Below are positions 1,620-61,837 of a stretch of 64,000 nucleotides of DNA, one piece after another. The notes under the pieces were generated by a model, which did not search any database, had not been told where the DNA came from, and saw only the letters and a program-made list of their open reading frames with translations. The position numbers were made by a program, and so were the translations under genes. Source of the DNA: Fimbriimonadia bacterium (GTDB taxonomy: Bacteria > Armatimonadota > Fimbriimonadia > Fimbriimonadales > JABRVX01); contig JBGPGO010000009.1 in NCBI GenBank assembly GCA_041483895.1, forward strand, positions 1 through 64,000, in the 5' to 3' direction. How positions within the stretch are numbered: position 1 is the stretch's first letter; each line of letters begins with the position of its first letter.

Positions 1620-4151
1620 CTAGCCGTTATCGCCGAAAAGAACCCAGCTAGCCCAGTAATGTGGCGAGGAGAATCGGGAAGAAAGCGCGGTGAGACAGGC
1701 GTGGCGCACGCTCGCCGCCTTGCCATTGCCGTCCGAAATGCCGCGATAGAACTGCTCGATCCAGTTGCAGGCCGCTTCATCCTGCACGGGCCATTGGGTT
1801 GCGAGAACGCTCGTGCATCCCGCGATCAAAAACGCCCACGCAAAGCTCATCACCCCCTCGCCGGCGGATAGACGCCCTTCGCTCGTGCCACACGCGGAAA
1901 GGACAACCAGCCGCGCGGAAAGTTTCATTTGATAGATATCCCTTGCGTACAGGTATTCGGCGTCCCCAGAAAGAGCCAACGCGCTCATGAGCGGCACGGC
2001 ATCGTTCGGCAAAGCATGGGTCGCGATGTGAATGTGGTCGGCGCTCATCGCCTCACGCCGAAACCTCTCGACCGTCGCTTCGTCTTCGCAAAGCAAGCGG
2101 GTGCGTTTCCCGAGCAGCGAACATGCGATGTCGGCCTCTCTCTTGATATGGGGCAGATCAAGTAGGCCGCCAAATTTGGAAACAGCAACGACTAATGGGT
2201 TGCCGTCGGTACCTTGCGTTGCGGATCGAACGCACGCCTCCCAGGCGGAGGCGGACGGCGCGGAAGACAAATTGAATCGCTCGATCAGATGGCTGCCGTT
2301 CTCGTCCATCAGCGCCCCGAACGGAATGCGATGGAGAAACCTGTCCGGGCAGATCACAAGGCTCTCAACGCCTTCCAGACCCTCCCGTATCGGCACAATC
2401 AATGCATCATGGAGCCATTTGGCATGCGGCCGATAGTCGTCTCCGTCCGCCGCACGAAGGCAGTCCGCGAACACCAAAGCGTTGCGCTCCATTTCGCCCT
2501 TCTTTATGGCCGCCGACCGAATTGTCATGCCCTCGCGCGTCACGAGCATCAATTCGATCTCCTCATCGCCTACCAATATCTCCAAGATAGCCTGGCCTGG
2601 CTGAAGGGCGGCCACAATCTCTTCCAGCCGGCACGCTTCAGAATGAAATCGGCCCCGCGTTGGATATTTCGCGCGCAACGAGGATTCCATGGCGCTCAGA
2701 TGGGCGAGCGCGGCATCCCGATCGCGCAGCCGTCCACGAAACTCGCCGTCGTTCGTTCGGGTCCCATGGACCAACCGCTGCGAATCTGAAAGCGCCTCTC
2801 TCGCGGCATCCAATCGCGATGAGTCGGCCTCGTCCATGTCCGGCGACTTTCGATCGGCTCGAACCACTTCGCGCAGCAGGACGCCCTTCGCCCGCTGGGA
2901 CTGTTCAAACGCTTCCGTCTCCCGGCCCAACTTTCGATTGGCACGGGCGATAGCCGACGGAAGGTCCGCAAATGGCCGCCCGAATCCCGCCGCCATCTCC
3001 GGATCCGTCTGCTCTTCCCGTATGCTTTCGAAAAGCTCCAACGATTGCGCAAAAGTCTGCGCCGCTTCGGCATTATTTCCAAGACGTTCTAGCGCCCGCC
3101 CAATCGTCAACTGGCACAGCGCCACGCTCCGCAAATCGCCCGCCTCGTCATACCGTCGTTTCGCCTCCGACGCGGTCTCGATCGAATCCTCCGCTTCGCC
3201 GTGGTCCAGCATCATCCGGGCTTCGCTCAGATAGGTTTCCGCGACCAGACGTCCAATCCCGAGCTTATCGAAGTGTGCCCGAGCCTTGTGATACATCGAT
3301 ATCGCCTGCTCACGATCCCCCAGCGCGGCATGCACGTCCCCGATGTTGAGGCAGCAGCCGGCAAACCTGCGATCCTCCGACAGTTCCTCGAACACCTCGG
3401 CGGCCTTGCCATACATCGCCAGCGCATCGGCGTGTCTCCCCGCGTCGGACTGCACGTTCCCTGCATTCAGATAGCAGCTTGCAACTCGCAATCGATCTCC
3501 ATGCGCCTCGAACGCCTGCCGGGCTTCCGTATACATCGCCAGCGCCTCTTTGGTCTTCCCCGTGTGCCGATACACATTGCCGGCATTCATTTTGCAAAGA
3601 CCCGCGAGCCGCTCGTTGCCGACCGAATCATAGAGCGCTTCCGCCTCGCTGTACATCGCCAACGCCAATGAGAAACGCCCCGTTTGGAAATAAACAAGAC
3701 CGGAATTGAAGCAGCTTGCCGCCTCGTTCGCCTTGTCGCCTGCGTCGCGATATCCCTTCCTTGCATGGGAGTAATGATTTAGAGATTCGTCCGCGCGGCC
3801 GGTCTCCGAAAGGACGGCGCCGGCGATCAGGTGGGCGCGCGCAAGGTCCGTGCCTTCCAATGACGGCAGGATGGCGTCAACCAGCCGCATCGCCTCCTCC
3901 CAGCGATTGCACAGGCGGGCGCAATATGCCTGGGCCAACTTCGCCTTACGGATTAGGCTCTCGTCCCCGAGCGCCCCCGCCGCAAGAGCTATCCCCGCCG
4001 CCTCCTCAAAGGCAAGCTCCTTGTCCTGAACCTCGGGCAGCCGCTCAAGCTCCGCCTCGAATGCCGCGAGGGTAAGCCATGACGGAAGGCGTTTCGGCGC
4101 CGCCCCTGTGCGGGCTAATTGGGCAAACCACTCGCTATGGTCGTCCGGCAT
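1620..4151 (-). CDS. TPR-repeat CHAT (caspase-like) domain protease
   Basis: About 40-aa helical repeats (N-x-G-x-V-Y...G...A); CHAT motifs LVICPDRFLHRIPFGAL, HIATHA, VVLSACGT, YWASWVLFG. Start at 4151 overlaps the upstream stop (TAATG). Confidence 0.9.
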   Translation of the reverse strand: MPDDHSEWFAQLARTGAAPKRLPSWLTLAAFEAELERLPEVQDKELAFEEAAGIALAAGALGDESLIRKAKLAQAYCARLCNRWEEAMRLVDAILPSLEGTDLARAHLIAGAVLSETGRADESLNHYSHARKGYRDAGDKANEAASCFNSGLVYFQTGRFSLALAMYSEAEALYDSVGNERLAGLCKMNAGNVYRHTGKTKEALAMYTEARQAFEAHGDRLRVASCYLNAGNVQSDAGRHADALAMYGKAAEVFEELSEDRRFAGCCLNIGDVHAALGDREQAISMYHKARAHFDKLGIGRLVAETYLSEARMMLDHGEAEDSIETASEAKRRYDEAGDLRSVALCQLTIGRALERLGNNAEAAQTFAQSLELFESIREEQTDPEMAAGFGRPFADLPSAIARANRKLGRETEAFEQSQRAKGVLLREVVRADRKSPDMDEADSSRLDAAREALSDSQRLVHGTRTNDGEFRGRLRDRDAALAHLSAMESSLRAKYPTRGRFHSEACRLEEIVAALQPGQAILEILVGDEEIELMLVTREGMTIRSAAIKKGEMERNALVFADCLRAADGDDYRPHAKWLHDALIVPIREGLEGVESLVICPDRFLHRIPFGALMDENGSHLIERFNLSSAPSASAWEACVRSATQGTDGNPLVVAVSKFGGLLDLPHIKREADIACSLLGKRTRLLCEDEATVERFRREAMSADHIHIATHALPNDAVPLMSALALSGDAEYLYARDIYQMKLSARLVVLSACGTSEGRLSAGEGVMSFAWAFLIAGCTSVLATQWPVQDEAACNWIEQFYRGISDGNGKAASVRHACLTALSSRFSSPHYWASWVLFGDNG

Positions 4152-20552: not shown

Positions 20553-21917
20553 ATGAACCGATTGGGGAGTTTGCGCGGTCGAGGTTGGCAAGGGGCGTGG
20601 CGGGCGCGGATTGCCGGGACAATAATCGTTGGCGTGTGTATGACCAGTTTCGGGATGGCTCAACCATTAACGACCGTGCGCGTTTCCGTCTCCTCCTCCG
20701 GGGAGCAAGGGAATCTGAAGAGCTCCGTGCCTTCGATCAGCGCGGACGGGCGTTATGTCGCCTTTATTAGTCACGCGACCAACCTGGTCTCCGGCGACAC
20801 GAACGGAGAAGAGGATGTGTTCGTTAATGACCGGATGGCCGGAACCACGGAGCGCGTCTCCGTCTCATCAACCGGGGAGCAAGGGAATTTGAGCAGCGGC
20901 GCGCCTTCGATCAGCGCGGACGGGCGCTATATCGCCTTCATGGGCTTGGCGAACAACCTAGTATCCGGGGACTCGAACGGTGGTTGGGACGTATTCGTTC
21001 GGGATCGGCTGGCCGGATCCACGGAGCGGGTCTCCGTTTCCTCCTCCGGGGACCAAGGGACTTCAAGCAGCTACTATCCTTCCATCAGCGCGGACGGCCG
21101 CTATGTCGCCTTTCAGAGCTACGCGAGCAACCTCATATCCGGGGACACGAACGGCGATGCGGACATCTTCGTTCGGGACCGGCAGGCCGGAACCACGGAG
21201 CGGGTGTCCATCGCCTCCAATGGGAAGCAAGGGAATCAGCACAGCTACTCTCCTTCAATCAGCGGAGACGGTCGGTATGTCGCCTTTGATAGCGCCGCGA
21301 ACACGCTGGTCATGGGGGACTCGGGCGGCTGGCAAGACGTTTTCGTTCGGGACCGGCAGGCGGGAACCACGGAGCGGGTTTCCCTCTCCTCCTCCGGCGT
21401 GCAAGGAAATTGGGACAGCTTTTATCCTTCCATCAGCGCGGACGGGCGCTATGTCGCCTTCGGTAGCTACGCGAGCAACCTCATATCCGGGGACACGAAT
21501 GGCTTTACTGATGTGTTCGTTCGGGACCGGCCGGCCGGAACCACGGAGCGGGTCTCCGTCTCCTCCTCCGAGGCGCAAGGAAATGGAAATTCGGACATCG
21601 AGTACGGCCCTTCGATCAGCGCGGACGGGCGCTATGTCGCCTTTACGAGCTACGCGACCAACCTGGTCGCCGGCGACACGAACGGTACCGATGACGTATT
21701 CGTTCGGGACCGGCAGGCGGGAACCACGGAGCGGGTGTCCGTCTCCTCCTCCTGGGCGCAAGGAAATTTGGACAGCTTCGGGTCTTCGATCAGCGCGGAC
21801 GGGCGCTATGTCGCCTGCATGAGCTACGCGAGCAACCTGGTGGCCGGGGACACGAACGGCGAGATAGACGTATTCGTTCGCAGTCGATTGCTTATTGCCG
21901 TTCCCATGGCGAAATGA
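20553..21917 (+). CDS. Secreted TolB-like/PD40 beta-propeller repeat protein
   Basis: GGAGG RBS; seven tandem ~58-aa repeats (TTERVSVSSSG.QGN..S..PSISADGRYVAF.S.A.NL..GDTNG..DVFVRDR) that are also similar at DNA level. Confidence 0.88.
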   Translation: MNRLGSLRGRGWQGAWRARIAGTIIVGVCMTSFGMAQPLTTVRVSVSSSGEQGNLKSSVPSISADGRYVAFISHATNLVSGDTNGEEDVFVNDRMAGTTERVSVSSTGEQGNLSSGAPSISADGRYIAFMGLANNLVSGDSNGGWDVFVRDRLAGSTERVSVSSSGDQGTSSSYYPSISADGRYVAFQSYASNLISGDTNGDADIFVRDRQAGTTERVSIASNGKQGNQHSYSPSISGDGRYVAFDSAANTLVMGDSGGWQDVFVRDRQAGTTERVSLSSSGVQGNWDSFYPSISADGRYVAFGSYASNLISGDTNGFTDVFVRDRPAGTTERVSVSSSEAQGNGNSDIEYGPSISADGRYVAFTSYATNLVAGDTNGTDDVFVRDRQAGTTERVSVSSSWAQGNLDSFGSSISADGRYVACMSYASNLVAGDTNGEIDVFVRSRLLIAVPMAK

Positions 21918-57204: not shown

Positions 57205-57795
57205 TTACCGCCGCCATGGTTTCGGCGGAATCTCTGGTAAGTCTATGGATTGCGCTCTTGCGACGTACTCCGAGAATGGCCGAACATACCATGCTAGGCG
57301 TGCGAGAATCTCGGAAAGGGAGCGGCCTGTTTTTGCTGCCATGCTATGAAGCGCGTTCGTAACGGCCGCCGGATCATGGTCGTAGAGGACTTTCAAGTAA
57401 TCGGCCGGGTGCGTCGCGCTGATACCCCAAGGTTTGAGCGCTGCAGGCGTGAAGTCCTTCACGTTAAAGGTCACGATGACTTCCGACTTTGAATGGATCG
57501 CCGCAGCGAGCACGTGGCGGTCTTTGGGGTGATTCGTGCATTCCGGAATGTACTGTTCGAATCCAGTCACCATTGCTTCGGGGAAGAACTCTTTCGCGGC
57601 TTTGATTCTGGAATCCGCAAGGGCATTTTCCCATCCAAGTATATTAATGTAGGTTCGTCGCGTCTCCTCCCAAATCTGCTCCGTCCATTTCGGCAACAGG
57701 AGTCTGGGTTCCTCGGAGAGTCGGAGGAACAGGTCGGAAACGGCCGCTTCCGCGAGCACACAGGCGTCGAGAACGACTGGAAAGTCGGCTCTCAA
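57205..57795 (-). CDS. PIN-domain toxin (PIN_3/VapC50-like)
   Basis: VVLDACVL, W...I.EE, HPKDRHVLAAA, IVTFNVKDF, HPADYL; start uncertain (TTG at 57795 chosen). Confidence 0.88.
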   Translation of the reverse strand: MRADFPVVLDACVLAEAAVSDLFLRLSEEPRLLLPKWTEQIWEETRRTYINILGWENALADSRIKAAKEFFPEAMVTGFEQYIPECTNHPKDRHVLAAAIHSKSEVIVTFNVKDFTPAALKPWGISATHPADYLKVLYDHDPAAVTNALHSMAAKTGRSLSEILARLAWYVRPFSEYVARAQSIDLPEIPPKPWRR

Positions 57796-57799
57796 TATC

Positions 57800-58270
57800 T
57801 CACCGTTCTGATTCGTCGCGTTCCAATGGAGCGAAGCGGTCGTAGACGTCCGCTTCCACAAGTTCTTCCGTCATCCTGTCGAGGCCGGCCTTTCGAACCC
57901 TGCTGCGATCGTGCTGAAACTTGACAAGGTCTTTGAAGAAAACCCTGCGATGTGTCCCGGCGTGGTGAAATGGGATCTTTTCATCTTCCAGCAGACGTAC
58001 GAGATATTGCCGCGAGACGCCGAGGAAGTTAGCGGCTGCCTGAGTCGTAAAAGCCTCATTCTCATGCATCAGGAAGACAGCTTCTCTGCGCTTCATCGCT
58101 TCGACAACGGCGACGAACAGATCGTTCAAAGCTTTGGGGAGCTCGATGGTTTCTCCTTTGGCTCCGATGAGGACGGGCCTGGCCCCTCCTTCCACCACTA
58201 GGAAGAGATCTCTTAATTGCTCGGCCGACATGTCAGACGGGTCAATCCGGATATCAGCGAGTGCGCTCAT
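57800..58270 (-). CDS. Excisionase-type HTH DNA-binding protein, cognate antitoxin
   Basis: FTTQAAANFLGVSRQYLVRLLE...IPF...GTHRRV; directly upstream of the PIN gene. Confidence 0.88.
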   Translation of the reverse strand: MSALADIRIDPSDMSAEQLRDLFLVVEGGARPVLIGAKGETIELPKALNDLFVAVVEAMKRREAVFLMHENEAFTTQAAANFLGVSRQYLVRLLEDEKIPFHHAGTHRRVFFKDLVKFQHDRSRVRKAGLDRMTEELVEADVYDRFAPLERDESER

Positions 58271-58458
58271 GAGACAATTATAGTTCATATTCGCTATAAA
58301 CGCAACTAGTTAGATTACTGGTTATGCCATTGTCGTCGTTAGCACGGCGGCTTCGAACGGCGAAAACGGCAAACTGTCCTAACTTGGCGTGAACTCGAAC
58401 ACAGGGGCGTAAATGAGAGTCAACGCGCTTGACGTTTTTACGCAAGGATGCGTCGTCC

Positions 58459-60003
58459 TTACCACTCGCCGGTCATTCGGAAATTGATAAAGATCCTGTT
58501 CAAATCTGATATGGTAGTAATGTTGTCGCCGTCCAAATCACCATCCGGACCGCCGAAGCCAACGATGACAATATTCAGGTCGTTAAGATCGATCGAGTCA
58601 TTATTGTCAGCGTCCCCTGAGAAGCAAAACGCATTTATCGCGGGACCGGGCGAGACGACTCCAGTTATCAAAGTACTTAGATACCGGTCAGCTTTGAGGC
58701 CGATATCGAACGTCCCTGTTGGCAGAATAAGATTGTATGTGCCGTCGGAACTTGGATCAATCCGCCTCCAGGCAAATGGTTGCGACGAACCGGGTGTTCG
58801 CAGATCGTAGGTAATGGGGGGAAAAGGAGCCTCCGGCACCCTGCTCTCAAATTCGACGTTAATTTTGATTGTGTTCCTGTCTGACGACACCGCAAGGCTG
58901 TGAACGAAACCATCGTCAGCTCCGACGGAAAGACCCGCTGCGGAAAGCCATAGGGGTGAATGGATCGGCCAGCCCCATAGAGGCGAGACCGAATAATCCC
59001 ATCTGTAGTTCCCGTCTGGTCCGTAGCAATAGATCCGATCCAAATTCGTGAGATAGAAGTTTCCGAGGGCGTCGACGACGGGAGTCTGTTGGAATTGGCT
59101 GGTAAAGGTACTCTTAGACCATTCAATGGCTCCAGCCGGCGAGAACCTGATGATCTGGTTCGCGGTATCCTGCAATATGATCAAGGCATCCCCATTTTGC
59201 GCTACAGCCAAGGCTCCTGGGTATCCGTTTTGGAAATGGTACGACCACAAAACATGACCCTGAAGGTCCAAGCAGGCGACATCGTAAAAGCCGCTCGGTT
59301 GATCGACAATCTGACATGTAACGTAAAGCCGGTCTTTGCCGCAAAAGCCCAGGATATTCGGAGACTGCATGAATCCCGGGATATCAACGCTAGTCCATTG
59401 ATTGTCCCCGTCAATTCGAACGAGTTTGCACTTGCCTGGTCCTTTTGCCGACACGACATAAATTGCGCCGTCTCGTCCTTCAACTGGCTGCGAACAGGAA
59501 CCACCAACATCCACAACGGTTTGACCCGTGTAGACAGATAAAAAGTTTACTCCCGTGTCGGATAGGCTGACGAGGACACCGTCGCGCCGCACGATGGCGA
59601 AGTTCCCGTTGATTCGGTCCATTCTAATGCCATCCGCTGAGAATAGAGCCCCGCCGAGCAAGGCGAGACCATTATTCAGTAAGAATGATTTTCCCTGGTA
59701 ACTTTGGCTCGGGTAACCCCATAGAGTTGATCCATCGTTTGCAAAGGCGAACGCTCCCTCTTGCGCAGAAATAAATGTACGACCATCTTCCGTACCGACT
59801 CCAGGGAAATAGATGTAGCCGGCACAGTCGCCCTTCCAAATTTGCGAAGGTGGCTCATTTAGTCGAACAAAATCGTTACGAGACGATCCTTGTGCGTCGT
59901 GGTATGGCATTGGCCATGCCGACGGATCGTATTGGCCGTGAGCAGTTCCAGCCAGGGTGATTAGCACGGCAGCACAGAGTCCAAATTGCGATGGAGCACT
60001 CAT
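58459..60003 (-). CDS. Secreted PQQ-like beta-propeller protein with C-terminal dockerin-like domain
   Basis: WPMPYHDAQGSSR, repeated ..DG...W.Y blades, GDADNNDSIDLNDL...DLDGDNITTISDL. Confidence 0.82.
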   Translation of the reverse strand: MSAPSQFGLCAAVLITLAGTAHGQYDPSAWPMPYHDAQGSSRNDFVRLNEPPSQIWKGDCAGYIYFPGVGTEDGRTFISAQEGAFAFANDGSTLWGYPSQSYQGKSFLLNNGLALLGGALFSADGIRMDRINGNFAIVRRDGVLVSLSDTGVNFLSVYTGQTVVDVGGSCSQPVEGRDGAIYVVSAKGPGKCKLVRIDGDNQWTSVDIPGFMQSPNILGFCGKDRLYVTCQIVDQPSGFYDVACLDLQGHVLWSYHFQNGYPGALAVAQNGDALIILQDTANQIIRFSPAGAIEWSKSTFTSQFQQTPVVDALGNFYLTNLDRIYCYGPDGNYRWDYSVSPLWGWPIHSPLWLSAAGLSVGADDGFVHSLAVSSDRNTIKINVEFESRVPEAPFPPITYDLRTPGSSQPFAWRRIDPSSDGTYNLILPTGTFDIGLKADRYLSTLITGVVSPGPAINAFCFSGDADNNDSIDLNDLNIVIVGFGGPDGDLDGDNITTISDLNRIFINFRMTGEW

Positions 60004-60118
60004 ACTATAAGTATACAGCAGAACGTCAAAAGAAACCAGAATCGTTCAATTTGGCCAGGCAGCTTGAGGCGACGGTTTAGGCCGGCGCTAGGAAAAACAG
60101 CTCGGCTACGCCGGTGCG

Positions 60119-60733
60119 TCAGGTGCTAACGAGTTGTCTCAGGCGTTGGCGGACGGCGCGTTTGGCCTCGCGGGCGGCGCCGTCGGAGATGTGCAGGGCA
60201 GAACAGATGGCCGCGTTCACCTCGTCGTCTGGCACAGTGAGGAGGAGGCGCGCGATCAGACGTTGACGCGGGTTGAGGGATGACTGTGCGGCGGTGATGC
60301 GATTCAGTACACGTTCCGTGTCCAACTCCCCAATGAGTTCACCTTCCCAATCTTGGGGGTCTGGCAGATCAAAGGTTCCCGTCTCGGCCATCTCGTCCAC
60401 GCTGACCATCTCGGCCTTCGCGGTCCGCTCCGATTCGCGGCGCAACTTGCTGAGCGCAAGGAAGGAGGCCTGCTTTTGCACTAGCGAGCGGAATTCCGCG
60501 TATGTTCCGGTCTCTTCGAAGCACTGGCACTTCGCCGCGCCGGCCCATACCTTCTCAAACGTCTCGGCAACCAGATCTTCAATCTCGCCCCGCAGCTTGG
60601 GGTAGTTCTGCCAGAGGGTTTTCGCGAGGTGGCTGCGCTCGGCGCGGACCAGTTGATCCATCGCCCGCCCGGCCTCGTCACCCCCGGCCCGTATTTGGGC
60701 CGCTAGTACAGAAAATCTTGTTTCGATTTCCAT
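60119..60733 (-). CDS. Divergent ECF-like sigma-70 factor
   Basis: Region-2-like A...L....R..L......IEDLVAETFEKVW; region-4-like SSLNPRQRLI...ICSALHIS.GAAR..KRAVRQRLR; AGGGAG RBS. Confidence 0.72.
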   Translation of the reverse strand: MEIETRFSVLAAQIRAGGDEAGRAMDQLVRAERSHLAKTLWQNYPKLRGEIEDLVAETFEKVWAGAAKCQCFEETGTYAEFRSLVQKQASFLALSKLRRESERTAKAEMVSVDEMAETGTFDLPDPQDWEGELIGELDTERVLNRITAAQSSLNPRQRLIARLLLTVPDDEVNAAICSALHISDGAAREAKRAVRQRLRQLVST

Positions 60734-60765
60734 CTTCTTACTCCCTTGTGATGGCGGATGACCGA

Positions 60766-60915
60766 TCAGTCGCCGATCAGGTCGCCATCCCCCTTTCCCT
60801 TGCCGATGGTCAGGTGGGAGATATCGGACTTGCCTTTGTGTGGCTGGGCGAACGATGTGGACACGATGCCAACCCAGACGATTGCGGCAATGAGCAGCAG
60901 TTTCAAGATTTTCAT
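60766..60915 (-). CDS. Small secreted peptide (49 aa), below the ORF-track cutoff
   Basis: GAGGAGG RBS, ATGA overlap with the TPR gene stop; MKILKLLLIAAIVWVGIVSTSFA|QPHKGKSDISHLTIGKGKGDGDLIGD. Confidence 0.75.
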   Translation of the reverse strand: MKILKLLLIAAIVWVGIVSTSFAQPHKGKSDISHLTIGKGKGDGDLIGD

Positions 60916-61628
60916 ATTCGGCCTCCTCGGTACTTCACATGAAGCGCGGTGTACTTTTCCTTCGCGTGTCCTGATAGTATCTCAAAATCGTTGTTTTTGC
61001 CAGCCTCTTTTAGCGTGGCGTTCGATTCTTCGGCCCGGTCCAGCAGGTGGAGAATGCCCCATAGCTCCAGCCTCCAGGCGGTGTTGCCAGGGTCGATCTC
61101 CAGCGCCTTGCGGGTCAATTCGGCTGCCTTTTGCAGCTTCGCTGCTTCAATCTCTTCGACGCCCTGTTGGGTCAAAAGTTCTGCCAGGTTTCGATAAGCC
61201 GGTCCAAGGACGCTGTCGGTCTCCGGGGTTCTGTCCGCGGCGAATTGTTGGATGAGGTTTTCCAGCAAACGCCCGCACTCTTGCCAGCCTTCTCTCGATG
61301 CTTCGTGGAGGTAGGCGAGGGCCAGGTTGCTCTTCGCCGGCGCATAGTCCTCGATGGCCAGGCATTTCTTATAGGCCTCGATGGCTTCCATCATGCGGTC
61401 TTCGCGCACGGCCTGGTTGCCTTCTCGGTAGGCGGCGAGGGCTTCGGGTGATTGGGGAGCGGGGAAGATGCGCTTCCACTCATAATCCGTTTGGGTCTCG
61501 AACCGCTGCTGGAACTCGGCGTCGAGGGGCTCCTCGCCGACGGGCCGCCCTTCGCGGATGGCGAATTGGGCGGTGTAGCTGTCCCTTTTTTTCTCTTTGG
61601 TGGTCGGCATTTCCGGTTCCTCTGGCAC
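60912..61628 (-). CDS. Cytoplasmic TPR-repeat protein
   Basis: GN.A......EAIEAYKKCLAI..YAPAKSNLALAY, AYRNLAEL, TRKALEIDPGN; GAGGAG RBS; no signal peptide. Confidence 0.82.
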   Translation of the reverse strand: MPEEPEMPTTKEKKRDSYTAQFAIREGRPVGEEPLDAEFQQRFETQTDYEWKRIFPAPQSPEALAAYREGNQAVREDRMMEAIEAYKKCLAIEDYAPAKSNLALAYLHEASREGWQECGRLLENLIQQFAADRTPETDSVLGPAYRNLAELLTQQGVEEIEAAKLQKAAELTRKALEIDPGNTAWRLELWGILHLLDRAEESNATLKEAGKNNDFEILSGHAKEKYTALHVKYRGGRI

Positions 61629-61645
61629 TTCTGCTCCACTCCTCT

Positions 61646-61671
61646 TGACGCAGGGTTCTTTCGGGGCGTCA
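61646..61671 (-). promoter_or_regulatory. TGACGC-N14-GCGTCA dyad directly upstream of the TPR gene RBS (ECF promoter or operator candidate)
   Basis: Perfect 6-bp inverted repeat; the downstream half reads CGTCAA, as in many ECF -10 elements. Confidence 0.4.
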
Positions 61672-61806
61672 GGGGGATTTTATCTTTTTTTACGTTTTTG
61701 GCGGATTCAGCGCCGGGGTCTGGGTTAGGGGCACGTGGGAAGTGGTCGGTAGGAGTGAACCCCGGCGCATCCACACTTTGGCACGCTGACCCTCGGCTCC
61801 AGAGTG

Positions 61807-61837
61807 AAGCCCCGAACCCTAGGGTTCGGGGCTTTTT
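61807..61837. terminator. 28-bp perfect palindrome, terminator-like
   Basis: AAGCCCCGAACCCT|AGGGTTCGGGGCTT followed by further Ts on the plus strand; lies just downstream of the GYD gene stop. Confidence 0.7.

Follow-up and report, generated by a model that had tools for sequence, protein, structure and literature searches.

Does the gap between a tetratricopeptide repeat (TPR) gene and a sigma factor gene in an Armatimonadota genome hold a third gene, and do the three act together in signalling? The locus lies on contig JBGPGO010000009.1 of a Fimbriimonadia bacterium, within the 64,000-nucleotide stretch analyzed here (the window), and all three genes are on the minus strand. A first-pass annotation of the DNA had proposed a small secreted peptide encoded between a TPR receptor and a sigma factor resembling the extracytoplasmic function (ECF) type. 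We find that this cassette is real, ancient and lineage-restricted, and that the order TPR gene, pro-peptide gene, ECF sigma gene is conserved outside the Firmicutes. The chance seems to us about even that the cassette works as a peptide-gated sigma switch with positive feedback, in which the TPR protein is a soluble anti-sigma factor whose hold is released by a re-imported peptide. The locus is laid out as follows.

61628-60912, minus strand: TPR gene, GTG start, 238 amino acids (aa), cytoplasmic product; candidate peptide receptor and anti-sigma factor
60915-60766, minus strand: pro-peptide gene, 49 aa, product predicted to be secreted; ATGA overlap with the TPR stop
60733-60119, minus strand: sigma-like gene, a divergent ECF sigma factor of 204 aa
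60922..60928, minus strand: GAGGAGG ribosome-binding site (RBS) of the small open reading frame (ORF), within the 3′ end of the TPR gene
60847..60915, minus strand: predicted Sec/signal peptidase I signal peptide, residues 1-23 with an S-F-A end, from the sequence and a heuristic rule
60769..60792, minus strand: conserved C-terminal core, peptide residues 42-49, the predicted TPR ligand
61647..61673, minus strand: ECF-type promoter-like element CCTGACG-N16-CGTC (-35/-10), 18 nt 5′ of the TPR start; putative function

The TPR stop and the sigma start are 178 bp apart, and the small ORF takes up most of this gap. The RBS, the ATGA coupling and the signal-peptide features described at first pass are all present. 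GAGGAGG lies 6 nt ahead of the ATG (homologues have AAGGAGG ahead of theirs), and the product has a basic N-terminus, a hydrophobic core and S-F-A before Gln24, with 26 residues left after the predicted cut. Signal peptides were called with our own hydropathy and A-x-A heuristic, not SignalP. By this rule 32/32 tabulated peptides (37-80 aa) are positive, with Ala at -1 in all 31 that have a located site; the last of the 33 peptides (L060, ~100 aa) was judged by eye. Orthologous ORFs of 46-47 aa occur in 4/4 close loci, each ending in DGD[LI]IGD and a stop, and there are equivalents in distant loci. We conclude that the unannotated ORF is a gene, as its orthologues keep the length and the stop after IGD and show a low ratio of nonsynonymous to synonymous differences (pN/pS, from pooled pairwise counts). 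The same features lead us to reject a chance ORF and the broken 5′ end of a longer gene, the latter an alternative that the first-pass annotation had itself raised.

A short signal-peptide ORF lies 3′ of the TPR gene in 33/33 distinct homologous loci with downstream DNA, from four Armatimonadota families (5 close loci, 26 in family f16, and 2 in families f11 and f10; kin loci are not independent). The same heuristic finds such an ORF behind 91 of 2735 genes of the host genome. An ECF sigma gene comes next in all 31 loci of sufficient length, so the small ORF is conserved between TPR and sigma homologues, as the first-pass annotation had expected of a true cassette. The window's sigma factor was found in three of the 61 genomes searched, the host and both others of its family, and was not found in the 58 genomes from other families of the order. 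Those two family members and two metagenome contigs carry the TPR gene, then a signal-peptide ORF of 46-47 aa, then the sigma gene (locus L007 ends ahead of sigma; L008 duplicates L005 and was counted once).

Against the phylum, a profile of the close group matched one distant TPR in 401 genomes, and an ATGA-coupled signal-peptide ORF and an ECF gene follow that TPR gene. Its relatives are present in 27/32 genomes of family f16. The search returned 30 f16 loci, from which three at contig edges and one duplicate were dropped; the small ORF is present in 26/26 of the rest and the sigma gene is visible in 25, the last locus stopping just past the peptide. The TPR and the sigma occur together in 27 of the 32 genomes, and neither was found in the other five, which are 85-95% complete. 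A broader profile matched 24/401 genomes and added one genome each in f11 and f10 with the same gene order (in f10, 1/7 genomes). Two weak matches in family f22 were rejected; the one read (L061) is an ordinary, unrelated long TPR protein. The TPRs of the two main groups are just 16-25% identical, and their flanking genes differ. When the close-group profile was run against 50% clusters, one of 370 matches was a full-length relative and f16 was missed, so this search does not bound the range. Atlas searches ranked an Armatimonadota cluster of 55 members first, with generic TPRs next. Where distant TPR homologues carry a source name, it is mostly Armatimonadota, and two labels name other groups.

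The host is not a Firmicute, in line with the first-pass impression. A close TPR homologue is labelled Fimbriimonadales, and Omp85 is present in 5/5 genomes checked, which points to an outer membrane. No second cassette was found in the host genome, where neither the TPR nor the peptide has a close paralogue. The sole other tblastn match to the peptide (contig C13, E 0.098) was rejected as a paralogue, since it falls within an unrelated gene, out of sense. In one genome (G358, L065:4648-5349 and 2632-3384) two paralogous ECF genes stand one on either side of the TPR and peptide genes.

The peptide is under strong protein-level purifying selection. Its pN/pS is 0.18 in the close group. In genus g103 (7 genomes) the 17-residue mature peptide is identical throughout (pN 0.000, pS 0.694), while identity is 74% for the TPR and 76% for the sigma protein. 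In genus g63 the mature peptide is 74% identical (pN/pS 0.40), with the TPR at 83% and the sigma factor at 91%. Of the internal repeats pointed out at first pass, KGKSD/KGKGD is not conserved in relatives; the C-terminal DGD[LI]IGD is, and DGD-x-IGD is invariant in 5/5 close sequences. A core of the form D[LIV][ISTN]G[PD] occurs in 26/32 peptides. In the window's group it is C-terminal, and in f16 it sits directly behind the predicted cleavage site, at the mature N-terminus. Judging from this pattern, the active part of the peptide is likely the D-[LIV]-x-G core rather than the KGK repeats.

In g63 (L012-L017) the first five mature residues vary by species, and at pocket positions 71 and 101 the TPRs have distinct residues in common; these variants are possible pherotypes. 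Most f16 peptides have runs of 3-7 prolines just 5′ of the sigma gene, and the window's group has no proline run. In genome G002 (L005:8955-9111) an insertion of ~145 bp separates the TPR stop from the peptide gene and is flanked by repeated TAAGGAG; because this motif is duplicated at the flanks, the RBS survives. A similar sequence, resembling a short interspersed repeat, appears again 3′ of the sigma gene.

The TPR protein passes the Pfam TPR_19 cut-off (26.1 bits vs 25), and its Pfam listing contains no helix-turn-helix (HTH) family, in line with the first-pass statement that no HTH is visible. It has no predicted membrane segment. The GTG start (238 aa) is favored because the resulting 18-nt offset to the promoter element is common to homologues; the database call is 232 aa, close homologues are 247-253 aa and f16 homologues ~233-286 aa. 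The protein consists of a conserved N-terminal arm (~residues 15-57) and nine helices. In the AlphaFold2 model (mean confidence, pLDDT, 81.7) the arm falls below ~55, and residues 1-50 form two short helices at low confidence. Fold searches give generic TPR matches. The zinc motif of the ZAS anti-sigma factors is H-x3-C-x2-C, and neither the full motif nor C-x2-C is present in any of 24 aligned TPRs.

Does the peptide bind this protein? We co-folded TPR residues 12-238, the sigma factor and peptide residues 20-49, each given as an alignment, and scored the peptide. The score was 0.71 (runs 0.71, 0.87 and 0.35) vs 0.00 for the best of three controls, and it dropped to 0.00 on replacing either the peptide or the TPR. 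The mark is reached by 116/157 solved complexes and 2/215 mismatched pairs, counts that hold roughly for this type of job. The runs have at least 30% of contacts in common and a partner pLDDT of at least 37, with the fold of the peptide uncertain. Co-folding, which had been proposed as a check on the TPR-peptide pairing, thus favors an interface. None of the results that the first-pass annotation had named as refuting its idea was obtained.

Confident contacts in the best run involve peptide residues 42-49 only, and this three-chain run lists no confident peptide-sigma contact. The TPR residues in contact lie in 46-55, 67-75, 97-107, 139-150, 188, 221 and 225. Conservation is higher at the 29 contact positions than at the 167 others (0.93 vs 0.77 in one group, 0.71 vs 0.57 in the other), a comparison limited by the frequent conservation of groove residues in general. 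Groups with different cores also differ in their pocket residues. Asn147 lies in the modeled pocket and is invariant in 24/24 rows. An Asn that contacts the peptide backbone is a conserved anchor in Rap and other TPRs, and is a general TPR feature (PMC3601957). The end of the arm, low-confidence when modeled alone, forms part of the modeled pocket and so offers a possible route from peptide binding to output. We consider the peptide quite likely to be the ligand of the TPR protein.

Alternatively, the TPR may be a partner that works independently of the peptide. The peptide would then target an unlinked surface receptor, serve as an output that the sigma regulon secretes, or work in cis, as a leader whose poly-proline run stalls ribosomes ahead of the sigma gene. 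The proline runs in f16 speak for this, and a model may dock short peptides in TPR grooves by likeness. We regard it as very unlikely, given that the window's group lacks the proline run, that the co-fold score vanishes once peptide or TPR is swapped and its contacts fall on the conserved core, and that ATGA coupling links the ORF to the TPR gene. ORFs of 37-49 codons also leave scant room for the translocon to pull on a stalled chain.

The sigma factor is a weak match by hidden Markov model (TIGR02937 25.7 bits vs cut-off 42.9; Pfam Sigma70_r2 E 0.17). Its structure model has two domains, sigma2 and sigma4 with a short linker, as in the definition of ECF (group 4) factors; the best Foldseek match is E. 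coli sigmaE (E 3.4e-4), and other ECFs are also among the best. The profile match to the f16 sigmas has a probability of 96.3, and one f16 sigma passes the Pfam cut-offs for both region 2 and region 4. The first-pass annotation had seen no ordinary anti-sigma, and we likewise see no membrane anti-sigma gene beside the sigma gene and no fused extension on the sigma factor; the flanks are variable. The TPR protein probably acts directly on this sigma factor.

The first-pass annotation had noted TGACGC-N14-GCGTCA upstream (61646-61671) and suggested autoregulation. The element is present once in the window, and 1/100 shuffles gave a match. Close loci carry TGACG-N16-CGTC[AT] in 5/5 cases, with unrelated spacer sequence and 18 nt 5′ of the start in the three measured. 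At the equivalent site in f16, [TC]GTCAC[AG]-N16/17-CGT is found in 26/27 genomes, the exception having no upstream DNA. We rejected a dyad operator for a dimeric regulator as the main reading, since the right arm is CGTCT in 4/4 relatives and the f16 element is non-palindromic. Because the spacing is fixed, the right box is CGT and the left box varies with the sigma lineage, the element is better read as a putative ECF -35/-10 promoter. CGT -10 boxes and autoregulation are described as ECF hallmarks (PMC8103513). The cassette is probably autoregulated, from what appears to be a promoter rather than an operator, and the exact inverted repeat first described is not conserved.

What else might the sigma factor transcribe? 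Among 24 sigma-like matches in the host genome, the element lies within 1500 nt 5′ of the operon for one, this cassette. For CTGACR-N16-CGTC in the host genome, 8/31 sites lie 8-120 nt before a predicted start vs 12/225 for 15 other spacers (Fisher p 0.003 without the cassette's own site, from our own crude gene calls and for the best of four patterns tried). There is no genome-wide excess of the 16-nt spacer regardless of position, and five f16 genomes show a weak excess (100 sites at N16 vs 63 at N19). The element stands ahead of an unlinked gene for a 142-aa membrane protein in 3/3 genomes of family f1 and in 0/26 other genomes of the order, though the protein itself is found in 29/29 genomes of the order searched. 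It also precedes a small lipoprotein gene in all three f1 genomes. Neither protein has a Pfam family over the cut-off. These target loci are G000:C13 near 193-678 (L125), G000:C11 near 20731-21224 (L124), L075, L088 and L071. No regulon common to both groups was found for the one gene tested.

Further candidate targets (on C2, C5, C12, C29 and C1) include a 235-aa exported protein, a 117-aa protein with a twin-arginine-like start, and tryptophanyl-tRNA synthetase. Two candidates we take, by motif, to be DacB-like and polysaccharide-export-like proteins. Some of the candidates are probably chance matches. A 616-aa Gly-rich exported protein without a Pfam match (L120:1568-3415; G000:C1, site 478478) begins 63 nt past CTGACG-N16-CGTCAG, a site that is identical on both strands, and the GKSD repeats in its N-terminal part resemble the KGKSD of the window peptide.

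We propose the following mechanism. The ECF sigma factor would transcribe its own operon from CCTGACG-N16-CGTC, and the TPR protein would keep it inactive in the cytoplasm, probably via the conserved flexible N-terminal arm. The pro-peptide would be exported by Sec, cut after Ala23 and trimmed, and a family-5 ABC peptide importer may return it to the cytoplasm; a family-5 peptide-binding protein is encoded in 5/5 genomes checked, unlinked to the cassette. There the peptide tail D-L-I-G-D is modeled to bind the TPR groove, and arm residues 46-55 may close over it, which would release the sigma factor. Released sigma would then act by positive feedback on the operon and on a small gene set of mostly exported and membrane proteins. 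Of the earlier idea of a peptide-gated anti-sigma or activator, the conserved cassette and the modeled peptide-TPR interface stand; TPR-sigma binding, its sign and cell-to-cell action are what we infer.

The same parts could work with the other sign. Peptide-bound TPR would then capture the sigma factor as a delayed shut-off timer, or TPR and peptide would be an activator or chaperone for a degenerate sigma. The conservation and the co-fold evidence fit this equally well, and the window sigma is weak by sequence model. Peptides turn RRNPP receptors on or off depending on the family (PMC10075063), and the activity of ECF42 depends on its fused TPR extension (PMC8999054). Against this, an ECF gene usually shares its transcript with an anti-sigma gene and activates its own expression (PMC8103513), and the operon offers no anti-sigma candidate but the TPR; Rap, an HTH-less RRNPP member, is an inhibitor relieved by its peptide (PMC3601957). 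We therefore hold release of the sigma factor to be the probable sign, favored over its opposite, and consider the other-sign schemes unlikely.

The first-pass annotation had likened the locus to the RRNPP architecture of Firmicutes. The adjacency, the TPRs and the small pro-peptide agree with this, and the size limit and the N-terminal domain do not. RRNPP_detector looks for a pro-peptide of 10-100 aa, a receptor with TPRs and adjacent genes (PMC10075063), all found here; its receptor range of 250-500 aa, an operational filter, excludes a protein of 238 (or 232) aa as a borderline case. The N-terminal HTH or three-helix bundle of RRNPPA members (PMC9765709) is lacking in the TPR, although a bundle may form on binding. 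As in Rap-Phr of Bacillus, an HTH-less cytoplasmic TPR gene is followed by a small gene for a pro-peptide, here with a predicted Sec signal (PMC10075063, PMC9765709, PMC3601957), the peptide sits (here modeled) in the concave groove on a conserved Asn, and the output is presumably a protein-protein contact. Unlike Rap, a three-helix bundle with many repeats, the protein here combines about four TPR hairpins with a flexible arm in its 238 aa; the host is a diderm Armatimonadota, and the linked partner is an ECF sigma rather than a response regulator. Neither Rap nor another RRNPP receptor was among the 60 PDB profile-search matches listed or among the Foldseek matches listed for the TPR model. 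In a fold comparison Rap (Z 13.9, root-mean-square deviation (rmsd) 3.0, 181 aligned) and PlcR (Z 13.8, rmsd 4.3, 173 aligned), with an overall Rap/PlcR range of Z 13.4-13.9, are outranked by unrelated TPRs (best Z 16.8). The cassette resembles Rap-Phr in its working, and RRNPP membership is not supported by the fold ranking.

Other known systems share parts of the design. ComR-ComS-SigX of streptococci combines a re-imported peptide, a TPR-type receptor and an alternative sigma output (PMC6224593), as we propose here, but ComR is a DNA-binding activator that induces sigX, whereas the TPR here is HTH-less and co-encoded with the sigma, so that control is probably post-translational. Known ECF systems with soluble or TPR regulators have the same two-domain fold, CGT-type -10 and probable autoregulation. 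In ECF42 the TPR is fused to the sigma, and here it is a separate gene. The mechanisms described for soluble anti-sigmas are ZAS conformational change, partner switching and a mechanosensing complex, with no peptide ligand in that account (PMC8999054), and the cassette TPRs differ from ZAS proteins in that none of 24 has the zinc motif. In Myxococcus xanthus the ECF sigma DdvS is under a TPR-containing anti-sigma, DdvA (PMC6061681, PMC11506125); DdvA is membrane-bound, unlike the TPR here, and the cassette has a peptide gene between TPR and sigma. The main text of an ECF classification preprint, which expects unrecognized soluble anti-sigmas, has no word match for Armatimonad-, and its supplements with group descriptions may mention the context (10.1101/2019.12.11.873521). 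A word search of the main text of an RRNPPA structural phylogeny for sigma or gram-negative gave no match (PMC12700828). Published descriptions of the cassette were searched by title and start of abstract, mostly outside subscription journals, and none was found.

The diderm host also raises the possibility of a cell-autonomous monitor of the envelope or of export, in which the peptide cycles via the cell's own periplasm, or the unexported precursor binds the TPR when Sec is impaired. Several candidate targets are exported or membrane proteins, the core of the window's group sits at a free C-terminus that is usable without processing, and the peptide is invariant across the whole genus g103, unlike strain-specific pherotypes. 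We find such a monitor distinctly unlikely, because in f16 the core begins exactly at the predicted cleavage site, which suggests that processing is needed, and because in g63 it varies by species along with TPR pocket positions 71 and 101, as expected of pherotypes.

Several points weigh against the peptide-gated release of sigma that we prefer. The cassette has no linked processing protease or transporter, and a cell-to-cell signal must cross two membranes, since the host has an outer membrane. In the co-fold the peptide pLDDT is below 50 and one of three runs gave just 0.35; a three-chain job with our own alignments is unlike the calibration set, and resemblance to solved TPR-peptide complexes could drive the pass. 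Six of the 32 peptides have no D-x-x-G core, the f16 core is mature N-terminal and not C-terminal, and a shared register between the groups is an assumption. No known anti-sigma domain matches the N-terminal arm, which also lacks a zinc motif. The window's group has Ser where f16 sigmas have the region-2 Asp of 'DxxR', the residue that reads the CGT -10 box; the sigma is degenerate, and the promoter could be read by another ECF. In 27/27 f16 loci of the membrane-protein target the element is absent, and the 235-aa candidate target was not found in the two relatives.

Tentatively, and at slightly less than an even chance, the cassettes may represent a new family of peptide-gated anti-sigma factors, with an exported and re-imported peptide, a soluble TPR, RRNPP-like cell-to-cell signaling in a diderm phylum, and species-specific variants in at least one genus. 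Accounts of cytoplasmic peptide-TPR signaling concern Firmicutes and their elements, with DNA binding or inhibition of a response regulator as outputs. If true, our proposal would extend cytoplasmic peptide-TPR logic to a diderm phylum and add a new mode of ECF sigma regulation, a peptide ligand on a soluble partner. Three small genes and a defined promoter make reconstitution in another host feasible, and the cassette points to a class of unannotated small genes overlooked by standard gene calling.

Elsewhere in the window, a perfect inverted repeat at 61807-61834 (13-bp arms, 2-nt center) is terminator-like and lies between a GYD-domain gene (62138-61848) and the cassette promoter. A sigma70-like promoter match at 60002-60029 (minus strand) overlaps the first called codon of a 514-aa exported protein (58459-60003), and because of this overlap the gene is probably transcribed separately or starts later. 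At 57205-58288 an HTH_17 gene precedes a PIN-domain gene, and the two are probably a pair of the toxin-antitoxin type.

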